Shown: piece after piece, positions 32,778 to 49,974 of the stretch
Position numbering within the stretch: position 1 is the first letter of the stretch
Layout of the letters: each line of letters starts with the position of its first letter
Assembly (NCBI GenBank): GCA_963771355.1
Contig: CAVYTA010000006.1
Coordinates: forward strand, 1,536,001-1,600,000
Length of the DNA: 64,000 nt
Direction of reading: 5' to 3'
Origin: an uncultured Candidatus Rokubacteria bacterium
GTDB lineage: Bacteria; Methylomirabilota; Methylomirabilia; Rokubacteriales; CSP1-6
The notes under the pieces: generated by a model
Seen by the model: only the letters and a program-made list of their open reading frames with translations
Database searches by the model: none
What the model was told of the DNA's origin: nothing
Position numbers and translations under genes: made by a program

Positions 32778-33101
32778 TCAGCGGGACGGCGAATCGGGGG
32801 AGGGCATTCCCCCGGCGGGGGGTCCGACGAAGCGGCGTAGCACGAGATCCCCGAAGTCCGCCTCCAGCTCCGCCGCCACCGTGTCGGCCACCTCCTCGGG
32901 ACTGCCCGCGCGCTCGACGTCGGCATCCTGGCCCCATCCCTCGAGGTACGCCTCGGCCTCGGTGGCCCCCTCGCGCATCGCGAGCGCGTCGATGAGGTCC
33001 TGGAAGCGCGGCGTGAGGGCCACGCGTACCGTCCGACCGTCACCCTCGGCCTCCACCAGGGACGGGATATCCTTCCAGCGGACGATACGATACCGCGCCA
33101 T
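32778..33101 (-). CDS. Virulence_fact (CvfC-like) domain small protein
   Basis: Recognised pattern WKDIPSLV...LTPRFQDLIDALAM..G....AYLEGW. Confidence 0.75.
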   Translation of the reverse strand: MARYRIVRWKDIPSLVEAEGDGRTVRVALTPRFQDLIDALAMREGATEAEAYLEGWGQDADVERAGSPEEVADTVAAELEADFGDLVLRRFVGPPAGGMPSPDSPSR

Positions 33102-33164: not shown

Positions 33165-33193
33165 TTGACAAAGCGCAACCCCACCCCTACGCT
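33165..33193 (+). promoter_or_regulatory. Sigma70-type promoter of the DUF169-methyltransferase gene
   Basis: TTGACA (33165-33170), 17 nt spacer, TACGCT (33188-33193); GGGAGG RBS before ATG 33214. Confidence 0.65.
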
Positions 33194-33213
33194 CGGCCTC
33201 GGGAGGATCCTCA

Positions 33214-35058
33214 ATGATCGACGTGCAGACGGCGGATCGGGAGCTCCAGACCTATATCCGCCCGCAGACCTTCCCGGTGGCGATCCGGATGCTCAAGCCC
33301 GGCGAGCCCATTCCGGACCGCGCGCGCCGTCCCGCGCGGGACTTCAAGAAGCTCAGCATGTCGTGCCAGGTCATCGACATGTCGCGGCGCTACGGCTGGA
33401 TGATCGCGCTCACGCGCGAGGACCACATCTGCTCGCTCGGCATCACCGCCATCGGCTTCGACCGGCCCCTGCCCATCTACAACGTGGGCACGCTGTGCGA
33501 GGGCATGTACACGGAGACGAAGGAAGCGGGCGCGCGCTCCGAGGCCGCCATCGACAAGTTCGCGCCCGGGGAGTACGAGACCCTGCTGGTGGCGCCGCTG
33601 GACCGCGCCACCTTCGAGCCGCATCTGGTCTGCGTCTATGCCAATCCCGCCCAGGTGATGCGGCTCACCCAGGCCGCGCTGTGGAAGCGTGGCGGCCGTC
33701 TTACCTCCTCCTTCGAGGGGCGCGCGGTCTGCGCCGACATCATCGTCACCACCATGAAGACCGGGGAGGCGCAGGTCATCCTCCCTTGCTCCGGGGACCG
33801 CATCTTCGGGCAGACGCAGGATCACGAGATGGCCTTCGCCATCCCGTGGGCGCGGATGGAGGAGATGGTGGAGGGCCTGCGGGGCACTCACAACGGCGGC
33901 ATCCGCTATCCCATCACCCAGTTCATGGAGTACGAGGCCAAGCTGCCGCCGCGCTACATGGAGGTGAACAAGCTCTGGGACGCCGAGAAGGGCAAGAGCG
34001 CGCTCACCAACCGGGACCGCGTGGTGGCCGCCTACAAGCGCTCGTTCTCCGACCGCGTGCCCGTCTATCCCATCGTGGCGTCGTTCGCGGGCACGCTGGA
34101 CGGGCTGAGCATCGAGGAGTACTGCACCAACCCCGTCAAGGCCATCAACGCGATGATGAACTACTACGAGCGCTATCAGCCCGACGTGGTGCTCGCCTAC
34201 AACGACCTCGCCAAGGAGGCGGAGGCCTTCGGCTGCGGCGTGAAGTACTCCGACTACGTGGTGCCCTCCATCGAGACCCACATCCTCGAGGACAAGGCCT
34301 CCCTGGCCCGGCTGGTGATGCCCGATCCCTACCGGACGGGGCGGCTGCCCGGTTTCCTCGAGCAGTGCGAGGCGCTCGTCAAGGCCAAGCCGCCGGCGGC
34401 CACCGGGGCGGTGGCGGTGGGCCCGTGGACCATCGCCATGCTGCTGCGGAACCCGGAGATGATGCTGCTCGACACCTTCGAGGATCCGCAGTTCATTCAC
34501 GACCTCATGCGGATCGCCACCGACTTCTCGAAGGTGTGGGGCGATGCCATCGTGAAGACCGGGATCGGACTGTCCTACTCCGAGCCCACCGCCTCCATCA
34601 GCTTGATCTCGCCCGACAACTACCGCGAGTTCATCGCGCCCTATCACAAGGAGCTGGTGGACCACTTCAAGGCCAAGAAGGTGGGAGTGACCACCCACAT
34701 CTGCGGCACCACCTATCCGATCTACGAAGACCTGATCCAGTGCGGGTTCACCACGGTGTCGTTCGACCTCGATCAGCAGGCCGATCCCGCGCTGCACGTG
34801 GACCAGCTCACGCGCTTCATGGAGGTGGTCAAGGGACGCGCGGTGGCCATCGGGAACGTGGATGCCACCAAGTTCGAGAAGACGACGCGGGAGGAGATGG
34901 AAGCCGACGTGCGGCGCTGCATCGATGCCGCCGCCCGGCACTCCGGCTTCATCCTGTCGACCTCGTGCGAGATCCCCCCGCGGTCCAATCCCGAGATCGT
35001 GAAGTGGTTCATGGACGCGGCCCACGACTACGGACGCTACGAGCGCGTGCTGGGCTGA
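33214..35058 (+). CDS. Fusion of DUF169 and a uroporphyrinogen-decarboxylase-fold MtaA/CmuA-type methylcobamide methyltransferase
   Basis: N-terminal ~250 aa: PVAIRM, SCQVI, HICSLG, YANPAQVMRL, AVCAD, LPCSGDR (DUF169-like). C-terminal part: DRVPVYP, EAEAFG, GPWT, EPTAS..LISP, THICG (HxC), GNVD, ILSTSCEI. Confidence 0.8.
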   Translation: MIDVQTADRELQTYIRPQTFPVAIRMLKPGEPIPDRARRPARDFKKLSMSCQVIDMSRRYGWMIALTREDHICSLGITAIGFDRPLPIYNVGTLCEGMYTETKEAGARSEAAIDKFAPGEYETLLVAPLDRATFEPHLVCVYANPAQVMRLTQAALWKRGGRLTSSFEGRAVCADIIVTTMKTGEAQVILPCSGDRIFGQTQDHEMAFAIPWARMEEMVEGLRGTHNGGIRYPITQFMEYEAKLPPRYMEVNKLWDAEKGKSALTNRDRVVAAYKRSFSDRVPVYPIVASFAGTLDGLSIEEYCTNPVKAINAMMNYYERYQPDVVLAYNDLAKEAEAFGCGVKYSDYVVPSIETHILEDKASLARLVMPDPYRTGRLPGFLEQCEALVKAKPPAATGAVAVGPWTIAMLLRNPEMMLLDTFEDPQFIHDLMRIATDFSKVWGDAIVKTGIGLSYSEPTASISLISPDNYREFIAPYHKELVDHFKAKKVGVTTHICGTTYPIYEDLIQCGFTTVSFDLDQQADPALHVDQLTRFMEVVKGRAVAIGNVDATKFEKTTREEMEADVRRCIDAAARHSGFILSTSCEIPPRSNPEIVKWFMDAAHDYGRYERVLG

Positions 35059-35085: not shown

Positions 35086-35112
35086 GGGCGCGGTGGGAAT
35101 CCCACCGCGCCC
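35086..35112 (-). terminator. Perfect GC hairpin between convergent genes; likely intrinsic terminator of the RRM gene
   Basis: GGGCGCGGTGGG-AAT-CCCACCGCGCCC (12-bp stem), followed on the minus strand by TTCGTCTTT. Confidence 0.7.

Positions 35113-43709: not shown

Positions 43710-43714
<5 letters not shown>
42353..43714 (-). CDS. Amidase signature family protein (start possibly ATT at 43714)
   Basis: GPLHGVPVALKD, GKVTT, TPGGSSSGSAAAV, GSQTVGSVLRPAAYCG. Confidence 0.88.
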
Positions 43715-45557
<1,843 letters not shown>

Positions 45558-46624: not shown

Positions 46625-47655
46625 GCGGGGTCGCCCTCCGCGCGGTTCATGGGCTCGACGTAGAGCGCGCGGACGACCTCCCACACGCCGGCGAGCACGG
46701 GAATGGCGACCAGCGCGCCCACCACGCCGGCGAGCTGGGCGCCGGCGAGAATGGCGAGCAGCACGGCGACCGGGTGCAGCCCGGTGGCGCGTCCCACGAA
46801 CTGCGGAACGAGCACCTTGCCCTCGACGAGATTCGCGCCCCAGAAGAGCAGGCCCGTCCAGACCCCCAGCATCGGCGAGATATTGACCGCGCTCACGATG
46901 CCCAGCACCGCCGCCGCCGGCGAGCCGAGAAAGGGCACCACGTTCAGCGCAAAGGCGATGCCGCCGATGAGCAACCAGTACGGCACGCCCAGCAGCGCCA
47001 GCCCCACCGCGATCATCGTCCCCACGCAGAGGCTTACCACCAGCTGCCCGCGCACGTAGCCGCCCATCACGGCGAGCACGCGCGGGGCGAGCGCGAGGGC
47101 GTGCGCGCGGGGGCGGGGTGGGAGCATTCGCGCGAGGGAAAACCCGATGCGCTCGGCGTCCAGCACCAGGTAGGCGGCCAGCACCAGCACGAGGAAGAAT
47201 CCGACCACCGCGCCGAGCATACCCGCCGTCGCGCGCAGCGTATTTTCAAGGAGCACCTGGCCCACCTTCTGGAGGCCGTCGGCCCCCGCGGTCGGCGGGG
47301 GAAGGGGCAGCTCCCAGTGGGCCACCCACGCGAGCACGCGCCGGATCAGCCCGCGGGCGTTCTCGAGGTGCAAGGGCAGCTGCTGGACGAACTCCCGCGT
47401 CTGCTCGGCGAGGGCGGGAACGAGGAACCGCCCCAGCACCGCGAGCACCAGCGCAAAGCCCGCGTAGACGGCGATCACGGTCACCAGGCGCGGGATGCGC
47501 CGCTGGTCACCCCAGCGGGCGGCGGGCAGGATGGCGGCGGCGAGGATGACCGCGGTGAGCAGGACCATCCAGATCTGCCAGGTCTGGACCAGCACCCAGG
47601 CGGCGAAGACGGCGAGCGCGACGCGCCCGATGGTGCTCCAGGACAACGGGGTCAC
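46621..47655 (-). CDS. AI-2E family transporter
   Basis: GYVRGQL, NVVPFLG, NLVEGKVLVP, GLHP, GALVAIP. GTGA overlap. Confidence 0.88.
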   Translation of the reverse strand: MTPLSWSTIGRVALAVFAAWVLVQTWQIWMVLLTAVILAAAILPAARWGDQRRIPRLVTVIAVYAGFALVLAVLGRFLVPALAEQTREFVQQLPLHLENARGLIRRVLAWVAHWELPLPPPTAGADGLQKVGQVLLENTLRATAGMLGAVVGFFLVLVLAAYLVLDAERIGFSLARMLPPRPRAHALALAPRVLAVMGGYVRGQLVVSLCVGTMIAVGLALLGVPYWLLIGGIAFALNVVPFLGSPAAAVLGIVSAVNISPMLGVWTGLLFWGANLVEGKVLVPQFVGRATGLHPVAVLLAILAGAQLAGVVGALVAIPVLAGVWEVVRALYVEPMNRAEGDPA

Positions 47656-48386
47656 CGTCGCACCGTGGCGACGGCGGGCGCCCGCCGGTAGGCGCAGTCG
47701 CGCATCCAGCAGCGCCGGCACTGGGTGAAGTAGTGGTCCACCCTGGCCTCGGGCCCGATCCCCACCAGCAGGGTGATGGTCTTGCCCGGCGTCATGAAGC
47801 ACGCCTCGTTGAGGTGGACGCCGATGGGCTCGCCGTCGCAGAGCTGGAACAGCGCGCGCTGCTCCGCGGTATCCCAGCCGGCATAGCCCGGGCTGATGCG
47901 GTTGGTGACCTGCAGCTGCTCGCCGAGGCCGACCTGGCAGAGAAGATCGTTCACGTACTCGGCCAGGCTCTCCACCGCCGCCGAGCCCACGCTGTCGAGC
48001 ATGACCGCCAGGGGGAACTCTCGCACGTCGAAGAGCGCGCGCACGCGCTCCTCGATGGCGTCCCCCACCGTGCAGATTGCCGCTCCCACCGCGGTGAGCG
48101 GGCCCCACAGCCGGTCGATCTGGGGAATGTGCAGCGCCTCGCCGCCGGCCTCGATGAGGCCGGGCCCCTGCCCCGTCACCGCGCGGGCCCGGTAGACCAC
48201 TCGCGGGTACATGAGGCTCTCGCCGAGCGCGAGCGCCTCGTCGAAGATGGCGCGCACCTCGGCGGTGGGCACGTCGACGCCCTTCTTGTAGCCCTGGAAG
48301 CGCAGCACCTCGTCGGGATCGACGCGGAGGGGGAGCCCGTCGAGCACGACGGGCCCGGGGGCCAGGACAGACGGCAGACCGCTCAC
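47652..48386 (-). CDS. Stand-alone B12-dependent methionine synthase activation (AdoMet-binding) domain protein
   Basis: AICTVG, LDSVGSAAVE, RISPGYAGW, GVHLNEACFMTPGKT; C-terminal CRRCWMRDCAYRR. Confidence 0.8.
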   Translation of the reverse strand: MSGLPSVLAPGPVVLDGLPLRVDPDEVLRFQGYKKGVDVPTAEVRAIFDEALALGESLMYPRVVYRARAVTGQGPGLIEAGGEALHIPQIDRLWGPLTAVGAAICTVGDAIEERVRALFDVREFPLAVMLDSVGSAAVESLAEYVNDLLCQVGLGEQLQVTNRISPGYAGWDTAEQRALFQLCDGEPIGVHLNEACFMTPGKTITLLVGIGPEARVDHYFTQCRRCWMRDCAYRRAPAVATVRR

Positions 48387-49306
48387 CGCTTGCGGCGGGC
48401 GCGCGCCACCTCGGCGATGAGCCGGATGTGCTCGGGGCCGGATCCGCAGCAGGCCCCCACGATATTGCATCCCGCATCGAGCAGCGCCGGATAGTCCTTG
48501 GCCATGGCCTCCGGCCCGAGCTCGTAGGTGGTGACGTCACCCTTGGTGATGGGCAGCCCGGCATTTGGATAGGCGATCAGGGGAGCATCGGTGACCGCGC
48601 GCATCTCGCGGATGATGGTGATGGCGCGATCGGGCCCGCGGCCGCAGTTCATTCCCACGATGTCGGCGCCCGCGGCGAGGAGGGTCTTCGCCACCTCGGC
48701 GGGACTCTCGCCCCACATGGTGCGGTCGCGATCGTGCTGCTCCTCGTACTGGAAAAACATGGTGGCCATCACGGGGAGGTCCGTCACCGCCTTGCAGGCG
48801 GCGATGGCCGCCGTCGCCTCCTGCGGGAACATCATGGTCTCGACGGCGAAGATGTCGACGCCACCCTCGGCGAGCGCCTCCGCCTGCTCGGTGAACGTCT
48901 CGAGGTACTGCGCGTCGGTGGCGACGTTGTCGCCCACGCCGTAGTCGGCGGGGACGCAGGAGGTCGGCCCGATGGAGCCCGCCACCCAGCGGCCCGGCGG
49001 ACACACCGCGCGCGCCAGCCGCGCCCCCTTGACGTTCAGCTCGCGGGTGCGGTCGCCGATCCGGTACTCGTTGAGCTTGAGGCGGGTGCCGCCGAAGGTG
49101 TTCGTCTCGACGAAATCGGAGCCGGCGTCGAAGTAGCCCCCGTGGATGCCGCGCACCACCTCGGCGTGCGAGTCGTTCCACACCTCCGGGCAGGCCCCGT
49201 TGAGGAGGCCGGCGTCGAAGAGCGCGGTCCCGTAGCCCCCGTCGAAGACGAGGAGCTCGCCCGCCTTGACGCGCTGGACGATTTCCCAGCCGGAGGATCT
49301 GGTCAT
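48383..49306 (-). CDS. Stand-alone homocysteine S-methyltransferase (MetH Hcy-binding module)
   Basis: FDGGYGT, ETNTFG, GSIGPT, ETM, GMNC, PNAGLP, GACCG (three Zn cysteines). Confidence 0.88.
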   Translation of the reverse strand: MTRSSGWEIVQRVKAGELLVFDGGYGTALFDAGLLNGACPEVWNDSHAEVVRGIHGGYFDAGSDFVETNTFGGTRLKLNEYRIGDRTRELNVKGARLARAVCPPGRWVAGSIGPTSCVPADYGVGDNVATDAQYLETFTEQAEALAEGGVDIFAVETMMFPQEATAAIAACKAVTDLPVMATMFFQYEEQHDRDRTMWGESPAEVAKTLLAAGADIVGMNCGRGPDRAITIIREMRAVTDAPLIAYPNAGLPITKGDVTTYELGPEAMAKDYPALLDAGCNIVGACCGSGPEHIRLIAEVARARRKR

Positions 49307-49974
49307 GTGGCGGCGGGCACTCCGAGGAGCTCTTTGGCGCGGACGACGGCGAGGGTGGAGTCCCGGGCGTAGCCGTCGGCGCCGATCTCATCGGCATACG
49401 CCTGGCTCACCGGAGCGCCCCCGATCATCACCTTGACCCGCTCACGGTGGCCGGCCTTGCTCAGCGCGTCGATCGTCCGCTTCATCGCCGGCATGGTCGT
49501 GGTCATCAGCGCGGAGATCCCCACGATCTGGGCGCCGTGCTCCTCGACGGCGGCGACGAACTTCTCGGGCGCCACGTCGCGCCCGAGGTTGATCACCTTG
49601 AAGCCCGCCCCCTCCAGCATCATGGCCACCAGGTTCTTGCCGATGTCGTGGAGGTCACCCTGCGCGGTGCCGATCACGATCACGCCCAGGTCCTGCTGCT
49701 CGCGGGCGGCGGCAGTGATGAGGGGCTTGAGGAGATCGAGCCCGGCGTACATCGCCCGCGCGGACAGGAGCACCTGGGGCACGTAGTATTCGTTGCGCCG
49801 GAACTTCTCCCCCACCACGTCCATGCCGGGGATGAGCCCCCGGAAGATGAGCTCCTTGGGGTCCATCGAGCGGGCCAAGCCGTCCTGGGTCTTCCGGGCC
49901 ACCGTGTCCTTGTCCCCGAGAATCAGAGCGCGCGACATGGTGGGGTAGTCGAACTCCTCGGGCGGATCACTCAT
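49303..49974 (-). CDS. Corrinoid (B12)-binding protein (cap + Rossmann domains)
   Basis: GMDVVGEKF...YVPQVLLSARAM cap; GDLHDIGKNLV (DxHxxG); SALMTTT; IGGAP. Confidence 0.92.
   Translation of the reverse strand: MSDPPEEFDYPTMSRALILGDKDTVARKTQDGLARSMDPKELIFRGLIPGMDVVGEKFRRNEYYVPQVLLSARAMYAGLDLLKPLITAAAREQQDLGVIVIGTAQGDLHDIGKNLVAMMLEGAGFKVINLGRDVAPEKFVAAVEEHGAQIVGISALMTTTMPAMKRTIDALSKAGHRERVKVMIGGAPVSQAYADEIGADGYARDSTLAVVRAKELLGVPAAT

Follow-up and report, generated by a model that had tools for sequence, protein, structure and literature searches.

What does a cell gain by joining DUF169 to a methyltransferase of the URO-D fold in a single protein? The question is raised by a 614-residue fusion gene in a 64,000-nucleotide stretch of DNA from an uncultured Candidatus Rokubacteria bacterium (assembly GCA_963771355.1, contig CAVYTA010000006.1, positions 1,536,001 to 1,600,000), which is called the window in the following text. 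The fusion gene is real and strongly conserved. The explanation that we prefer, to which we give a little less than an even chance, is that a methyl group from a sulfur or selenium compound passes through a corrinoid protein into methionine without folate, and that DUF169 serves as a cysteine-ligated metal module.

The original prediction had described an uninterrupted reading frame with DUF169-like cysteine motifs in its N-terminal half and an H-x-C motif plus a distal cysteine in its C-terminal half. The frame contains no internal stop, and the motifs SCQ (C51), HIC (C73), VCAD (C173), PCSGDR (C192), THICG (H495, C497) and STSCEI (C585) lie where they had been placed. The N-terminal half matches DUF169 (PF02596) with 197 bits against a cut-off of 27, over positions 2-209 of the 209 of the model, and the C-terminal half matches URO-D (PF01208) with 208 bits against a cut-off of 23.9. 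The best 120 database matches are all full-length two-domain proteins with 83-93% identity. An unbroken open reading frame of at least 585 residues is present in 77 of 80 genome loci, whose record titles name mostly Rokubacteria or Methylomirabilota; two of the other loci stop at contig ends and one is split in two. The distribution of the gene was followed in a sample of 161 genomes of the phylum, the families of which are labelled f1-f11, the genomes with G-numbers and the loci with L-numbers. Of the 117 further genomes of this order, 103 have a single stop-free match that spans the junction; four of the remaining 14 have only the methyltransferase half (at least 85%), one of them with the other half adjacent in a different frame, and ten are not listed. 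Outside the order, the whole fusion was found in families f7 (1/1), f8 (2/3) and f9 (2/12). The third f8 genome contains it as two contig-end pieces and one further f9 genome in two frames, whereas it was not found in the f4, f5, f6, f10 and f11 genomes of the sample. The junction is bridged by contigs from two DNA runs, with 0 and 1 differences, and from one RNA-library run, with 0 differences; the RNA-library contigs span parts of the gene and cannot show expression.

Counting the taxonomic spread, as had been proposed, showed that the fusion is near-universal in Rokubacteria, and all named distant fusion records belong to NC10/Methylomirabilota. The join is retained over 51-98% identity throughout the class. 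The codon differences among 22 loci are 0.062 non-synonymous and 0.25 synonymous for DUF169 versus 0.098 and 0.24 for the methyltransferase, so that synonymous differences far exceed non-synonymous ones in both halves. Judged from quick trees of the two domains without bootstrap, in which the fused rows form one clade with a stand-alone methyltransferase paralog nested within it, the fusion looks like a single event within one phylum. Databases already carry automatic labels for the protein; no paper on the fusion was found in the literature searched, subscription papers and supplements excepted. A plasmid search returned seven weak single-domain matches and no fused one, and both of the plasmid URO-D matches that were inspected adjoin cobalamin-dependent proteins.

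The C-terminal half had been assigned to the MtaA/CmuA type of methyltransferases and separated from true HemE. By profile, sequence and fold it is closer to MtaA than to HemE. It scores 127.5 bits over the full length and 130 bits for the domain with the MtaA/CmuA model TIGR01463, and because the curated cut-off is 235.4, the domain has to be described as MtaA-like and not as a member of TIGR01463. The best solved match by sequence is MtaA (expectation value E of 1e-17, compared to 3e-5 for HemE), and Foldseek ranked MtaA 4AY7 (E 6e-24, template-modelling (TM) score 0.86 over the target) before HemE structures (1e-20). H495 and C497 align to HICG of MtaA and C585 to its distal cysteine, and all three residues are kept in 34 of 34 aligned fused rows. 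We take the HICG and APGCG positions of 4AY7 to be the zinc ligands of MtaA. The assignment to HemE was rejected because the hemE model TIGR01464 scores 40-42 bits against a cut-off of 303, the motif RQAGR is missing from the fusion, and the genome has a separate HemE that carries it; RQAGR is an N-terminal motif of HemE. The identity to MtaA in the structural alignment is 24%, and the definition of Mlps asks for more than 25% to a characterised coenzyme M methyltransferase. According to the accessible part of PMC10418091, a His-Cys-Cys triad marks the sulfur- and selenium-methyltransferases of the superfamily, whereas O-demethylases have carboxylates in place of the cysteines, and an MtaA-like protein methylates selenide, and weakly sulfide, in vitro. 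The C-terminal half is thus likely a sulfur- or selenium-methyltransferase, with zinc predicted to be held by His495, Cys497 and Cys585. Many Rokubacteria also contain a DUF169-less methyltransferase paralog (65-68% identity, inside the fused clade; L089-L096, L106-L108), which usually adjoins a luciferase-like oxidoreductase and has a nitrilase-family gene nearby.

As expected for a corrinoid-dependent methyltransferase, the genome encodes both a cognate corrinoid protein and the reductive activator RACo. The prediction of a complex of the whole fusion protein with the corrinoid protein reached a score of 0.62, with 0.00 for the best of three controls; among solved pairs, 116 of 157 come up to the mark for this score, compared to 2 of 215 mismatched ones, and these numbers are rough for our own alignments. 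The complex runs agree in at least 54% of contacts, and the predicted local distance difference test (pLDDT) value of the partner is at least 77. The named interface places methyltransferase residues 415-527 on residues 59-73 of the corrinoid cap. No DUF169 residue is among the named interface residues, and since the tool leaves uncertain residues unnamed, this is not evidence against a contact of DUF169. The model supports binding of the methyltransferase domain to the corrinoid protein but may reflect family likeness; taking all observations together, we consider it probable that the fusion works with this corrinoid protein.

The corrinoid gene lies about 14 kb downstream of the fusion on the opposite strand, in a cassette together with genes for a stand-alone homocysteine S-methyltransferase (Hcy-MT) and a reactivation-domain protein of the Met_synt_B12 family. 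The only RACo gene of the genome is about 370 kb from the fusion. The genome is 99.8% complete, and neither MttB nor a stand-alone pterin-binding module was found in it; the only pterin hits are a full MetH and a 289-residue frame interpreted as FolP. What the cassette itself lacks is therefore a module to donate the methyl group, while carrier, acceptor module and reactivation are all in place. The fusion and the cassette are co-distributed. In f2, the fusion, the corrinoid protein and Hcy-MT each occur in 15/15 genomes, full MetH in 2/15 and a single pterin hit in 13/15; in f8, the cassette is present in 3/3 genomes and MetH in 0/3. None of the fusion, RACo, Hcy-MT and the corrinoid ortholog occurs in the families f5 (0/11) and f6 (0/12). 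In f8, 5.1-5.5 kb separate the fusion and the corrinoid gene, with wholly different genes around them, and in L133, L135 and G105 the fusion is followed at a distance of 1.5-2.2 kb by the gene for the reactivation protein or for Hcy-MT. The gap between the fusion and the corrinoid gene has a median of 12.8 kb in the home order (64 same-contig pairs) and is 33-53 kb in f2. General synteny accounts for the linkage of the two in the home order. A paralogous set of Hcy-MT, corrinoid, reactivation and RACo genes in G052 has MtmB, a donor module of a known type, in its own cluster, so that separate donor modules can evidently supply such a cassette. The loci L214, L227 (G052:C39) and L213, which contain genes for Hcy-MT, a GcvT-containing dehydrogenase, MtmB-family, corrinoid and reactivation proteins, and RACo, represent a probable methylamine-to-methionine cluster.

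The small PF13769 protein encoded divergently from the fusion (Pfam label 'Virulence_fact') occurs in 93/101 genomes of f1, 14/15 of f2, 2/3 of f8 and 3/12 of f9, and in none of f5 and f6. Within f9, it and a close corrinoid ortholog are both present in G047, G050 and G052 only. The protein thus tracks the corrinoid cassette across the phylum and is probably an accessory of corrinoid methyltransferase systems. PF13769 was also observed within a separate cluster of corrinoid, RACo, pterin and FTHFS genes in L233.

The DUF169 half is well ordered in its predicted structure (pLDDT 96.6, predicted TM score (pTM) 0.90), whereas the full-length protein has a pTM of 0.72, calculated from a partly unpaired alignment. 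C51 is conserved in 93 of 93 members of the DUF169 family, C73 and C173 each in 92 of 93, and C192 in 67 of 93. Two of the five cysteines, C95 and C192, differ among family members, but none of the five varies in the 34 fused rows. Neither Foldseek with the DUF169 model (at E of 0.001 or lower) nor a profile search of PDB sequences gave a match, and a protein atlas query returned only DUF169 clusters. VIA-align produced a best Z-score of 4.8 (root-mean-square deviation 4.1 A, 123 aligned residues), and 49 of its 50 rows were of the thiolase/ketosynthase type; this fold was not assigned, since all rows were below a Z-score of 5. A search for an internal repeat by hhalign was negative. No function for DUF169 was found in the accessible text of the literature holding the term. 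The contexts of DUF169 outside Rokubacteria that were recovered by a metagenome scan are mostly fusions, and five stand-alone metagenome loci, two of them shorter than 2.1 kb, contain no methyltransferase match. A methyltransferase neighbour of DUF169 in other bacteria was found in only one distant case, genome G057, where the DUF169 gene directly follows hgcA/hgcB-like genes and is separated by 4 bp from an HxC URO-D gene downstream of it. In G125, a distant DUF169 gene abuts the RACo gene. DUF169 is also drawn near hgcAB in Nitrospina in the accessible part of 10.1101/648329.

DUF169 was also recorded in other settings. The locus of G057 (L123, G057:C6:353000-370000) contains hgcA/hgcB-like, PEMT-like, DUF169 and HxC URO-D genes in a row, adjoined by genes for DUF1638, a corrinoid protein, a Lar_N protein, a second URO-D protein and RACo; a cluster for mercury methylation has probably been combined with a corrinoid system there. 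A second stand-alone DUF169 of the genome studied here (G000:C6:1701676-1702458, L002) is 25% identical, has Asp in place of C51, and sits inside an operon of ABC-transporter and amidohydrolase genes. The 574-residue protein P0157 contains DUF169 between two MaoC/hot-dog dehydratase-like regions.

Based on these observations, a mechanism can be proposed. The zinc site in the C-terminal half of the fusion would activate a methyl-sulfur or methyl-selenium compound, and Co(I) of the corrinoid protein would accept the methyl group. Hcy-MT would then pass the methyl group from the corrinoid to homocysteine, giving methionine without folate, and RACo or the Met_synt_B12 protein would reactivate the corrinoid cofactor. 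A hub corrinoid that links a donor module to Hcy-MT has precedent in the accessible parts of PMC12478193 and PMC5764234. We consider flow of the methyl group toward homocysteine somewhat the better supported direction, whereas the chances that the donor is a sulfur or selenium compound are evenly balanced. DUF169 likely binds a metal or an Fe-S centre via C51, C73 and C173, and it may accept the sulfide, selenide or thiol that is set free, or pass it on; that DUF169 handles the released sulfur or selenium appears rather doubtful. The strongest form of the proposal, an undescribed folate-independent methionine route of Rokubacteria in which a bifunctional enzyme delivers the methyl group via a B12 protein and captures the freed sulfur or selenium on DUF169 as a new carrier, is improbable in our judgement.

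Several observations weigh against the preferred explanation. The complex score may reflect the docking of any URO-D methyltransferase to any corrinoid cap, and the methyltransferase domain scores under the MtaA/CmuA cut-off. In f6 and f10, DUF169 orthologs with 57% identity are not fused, and their 17-kb loci contain no methyltransferase gene; a 67% methyltransferase paralog within the fused clade has shed DUF169. The 57 of 64 same-contig pairs that lie within 20 kb represent mostly one syntenic order, and the counts are not independent. The cassette is present in G047, G115, G147 and G107, assemblies that are 85-93% complete, the last two of which are also without the adjacent PF13769 gene, and even a profile search detected no fusion in these four; G050, G052 and G011 carry the fusion and the cassette on separate contigs. 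Hcy-MT homologs (58-61%) occur at other loci in five f9 genomes without the fusion. MetH or MetE-family proteins are encoded by nearly all these genomes, so that the route is not required as the sole methionine synthase and would be an extra one. Four further URO-D genes are present in the genome; one of them adjoins RACo, and another encodes HICG plus a distal cysteine. These genes are candidates for the donor of the cassette as well. Close orthologs (at least 61%) of the HICG gene are present in about 55 of 161 genomes, and since it matched (E of 1e-15 or lower) in 12/12 genomes of f6, a family with neither RACo nor the corrinoid ortholog, this group does not track the cassette. SelD is present in 156 of 161 genomes, and tRNA-Sec in this genome; the phylum-wide occurrence of SelD gives no support for selenium in particular. 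Six genes of the MetE C-terminal family (PF01717) were counted in the genome, and a stronger MetE-like hit (E about 1e-80) was noted in several MetH-less relatives, sometimes in an adjacent pair. The RACo gene of this genome is co-directional with a URO-D gene of H-C-H type (not H-x-C), from which a MaoC-like gene usually separates it (G000:C6:1195712-1199479, L006, and L215-L217, L219 and L220); the pairing was seen in f1 and not in the two f2 loci examined.

The methyl group could instead travel in reverse, as in MtaA, from the methyl-corrinoid to a small thiol, sulfide, selenide or a metalloid (As, Hg, Te) on the cysteine-rich DUF169, and serve detoxification or volatilisation. MtaA, the closest solved protein, is an acceptor-side enzyme, and such a direction would agree with the methylation of selenide in vitro (accessible part of PMC10418091), with the setting of the G057 gene pair, which has hgcA/hgcB-like genes beside it and a cluster of DUF1638, corrinoid and RACo genes nearby, and with the occurrence of DUF169 near hgcAB in Nitrospina. 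We nevertheless regard it as unlikely: in families f2 and f8, no further module that could methylate the corrinoid was found, the reactivation route excepted, Hcy-MT always adjoins the corrinoid gene and would drain the methyl group, and among the neighbours of the fusion no gene related to arsenic or mercury was noticed. About the same low probability is given to a one-time, lineage-specific join that was kept by co-regulation, with DUF169 doing a sulfur or metal job of its own and having no direct part in methyl transfer. The tree fits one origin, the named fused records are confined to Methylomirabilota/NC10, each half is also found alone, pTM falls from that of DUF169 alone to that of the full-length protein, and in P0157 DUF169 is fused within a MaoC-type protein. 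However, the join is kept throughout the class, the constraint on DUF169 is at least as strong as that on the methyltransferase, the five cysteines are fixed in the fused rows while two of them vary in the family, and distant DUF169 genes abut a URO-D gene in G057 and the RACo gene in G125. The idea of the original prediction that the fusion is a Rosetta-stone clue to DUF169 therefore stands in part: the retention of the join, the strong constraint and the distant DUF169 genes next to a URO-D or RACo gene argue for it, whereas the single origin, the orthologs that stand alone and the paralog that has shed DUF169 argue against. The tie to corrinoid chemistry is supported for the methyltransferase half, by gene context and the complex model, and is only moderate for DUF169.

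The single piece that the cassette is missing is a pterin module, and the fusion could be a new methyl-tetrahydrofolate:corrinoid methyltransferase that replaces it, which would make the cassette a folate-dependent split MetH. The YitJ-type gene 2.1 kb from the cassette and the fold relationship to MetE, a methyl-folate binder, are in line with this, and the same possibility is raised for mlp clusters in the accessible part of PMC10418091. The His-Cys-Cys triad indicates a soft sulfur or selenium substrate, however, and MetH or MetE-family enzymes are already present in the genomes, and we assign this explanation a clearly smaller chance than the two preceding ones. To our knowledge, no folate methyltransferase belongs to the URO-D family (PF01208), which counts against it as well. 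A uroporphyrinogen decarboxylase in the C-terminal half, or a fusion created by a lost stop codon, is practically negligible as an explanation. The Pfam URO-D match and some database labels would agree with the former, but the low hemE score, the missing RQAGR and the true HemE elsewhere in the genome contradict it, and the junction is intact in 77 of 80 genome loci, in 103 of 117 genomes of the order and in the contigs from DNA and RNA reads.

The fusion and the preferred route, from a sulfur or selenium methyl donor to methionine, were compared with several known systems. The fusion shares with the methylcobamide:coenzyme M methyltransferases MtaA, MtbA and MtsA (4AY7/4AY8; TIGR01463) the URO-D barrel (TM score 0.86-0.88 over the target, 24% identity), the aligned H-x-C...C residues and the predicted docking on a corrinoid protein. 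It differs from them in the score of 127-130 bits against 235, the N-terminal DUF169, the bacterial host, and a partner cassette that ends in a homocysteine methyltransferase. The type 1 mlp clusters of Kountz and Balskus, as described in the accessible part of PMC10418091, also comprise a corrinoid protein and RACo along with bacterial URO-D proteins that have the His-Cys-Cys triad, contain no folate methylase, and were proposed to salvage methyl-sulfur or methyl-selenium groups into methionine. They occur in obligate anaerobes and have at least two Mlps co-directional with corrinoid and Ram genes within 2 kb, an arrangement that is not found at the fusion locus, where a single gene is separated from a cassette on the other strand and a dedicated Hcy-MT is present; the accessible part of that source does not mention DUF169. 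The split MetH/MtgBCDE systems of Phaeobacter and Ruegeria (accessible parts of PMC5764234 and PMC12478193) are similar in their stand-alone corrinoid hub, Hcy-MT, RamA-like activator and plug-in donors. They have their own pterin-binding MtgD and MttB-family MtgB, neither type of which was found in this genome, where a Met_synt_B12 protein occurs instead; the stand-alone pterin module of the folate-dependent Phaeobacter type is thus absent here. With DUF169/COG2043 (PF02596) in general, the protein has in common the full-length match, the conserved cysteines and the GDR and DxE motifs, and it differs in being fused to a methyltransferase.

DUF169 is widespread, and the fusion ties it moderately to B12-dependent methyl transfer within a small, defined set made up of the fusion, RACo, Hcy-MT and the corrinoid protein. 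Nearly all Rokubacteria, a group that is abundant in soil and uncultured, carry the module; unlike the known split methionine synthases, it has no folate part. Its parts are known enzyme types, so that it is a testable lead and not a new kind of system. Should the strongest form of the proposal hold, DUF169 would gain its first function, and methylated sulfur or selenium would have a sink in an abundant lineage of the soil.

The features of the locus and of the cassette are listed in the table. The original prediction had provided the fusion with a promoter TTGACA-N17-TACGCT of its own, and this sigma-70-type promoter-like site is present upstream of the gene. The promoter scanner gave no call for it because the -10 box matches in only 3 of 6 positions. 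Of 80 homologous loci, 60 could be examined, and 22 of these have a TTGACA-like box, a 16-18-nucleotide spacer and TAnnnT upstream of the gene, versus 127 of 4045 genes of the genome itself; the loci are related and not independent. Many homologous loci without the TTGACA-like pattern retain a TAGTA(C/G)(G/C)CT -10 box.

Table. Features of the fusion gene, its flanks and the corrinoid cassette, with positions counted from the first nucleotide of the window
Feature	Position	Strand	Basis or remark
DUF169::URO-D-fold (MtaA-like) fusion gene	33214..35058	+	614 residues, single stop-free frame
DUF169 match, residues 11-221 (folded unit about 1-258)	33244..33876	+	Pfam
C51, C73 and C173, near-invariant	33364-66, 33430-32, 33730-32	+	DUF169 family alignment
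C192, variable across the DUF169 family	33787-89	+	DUF169 family alignment
URO-D-fold methyltransferase domain, residues 265-606	34006..35031	+	Pfam, profile, sequence and fold
His495-x-Cys497, predicted zinc ligands	34696..34704	+	Alignment to LHICG of MtaA 4AY7; conserved
Cys585, predicted third zinc ligand	34966..34968	+	Alignment to APGCG Cys of 4AY7; conserved
Sigma-70-type promoter-like site, TTGACA-N17-TACGCT	33165..33193	+	Below promoter scanner threshold
Ribosome-binding site GGAGG	33202-33206	+	Sequence
12-bp hairpin, terminator-like, between the fusion and a convergent RRM gene	35086..35112	no strand	
PF13769 small protein, divergent from the fusion	32778..33101	-	Pfam
YitJ-type Hcy-MT/MTHFR fusion gene, near the cassette	43710-45557	-	
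Stand-alone Met_synt_B12 reactivation-domain protein	47652..48347	-	Weak Pfam match, 27 bits, cut-off 25
Stand-alone Hcy-MT (PF02574; Cys motifs GMNCG and GACCG)	48383..49306	-	
Stand-alone corrinoid protein (cap and B12-binding domains, DxHxxG motif), predicted partner	49303..49974	-	

In L012, L014, L016 and L023, the TTGACA promoter is missing from the last 120 bases upstream of the fusion, and another element with a short inverted repeat of the type TCAACATG...CATGTTGA is located there. The segment 18189-32745 of the window contains an ordinary block of the acetate-uptake type, with genes for an SSF transporter with DUF4212, a CBS/DUF294 protein, an exonuclease and acetyl-CoA synthetase, together with an SSF-sensor kinase and a response regulator.

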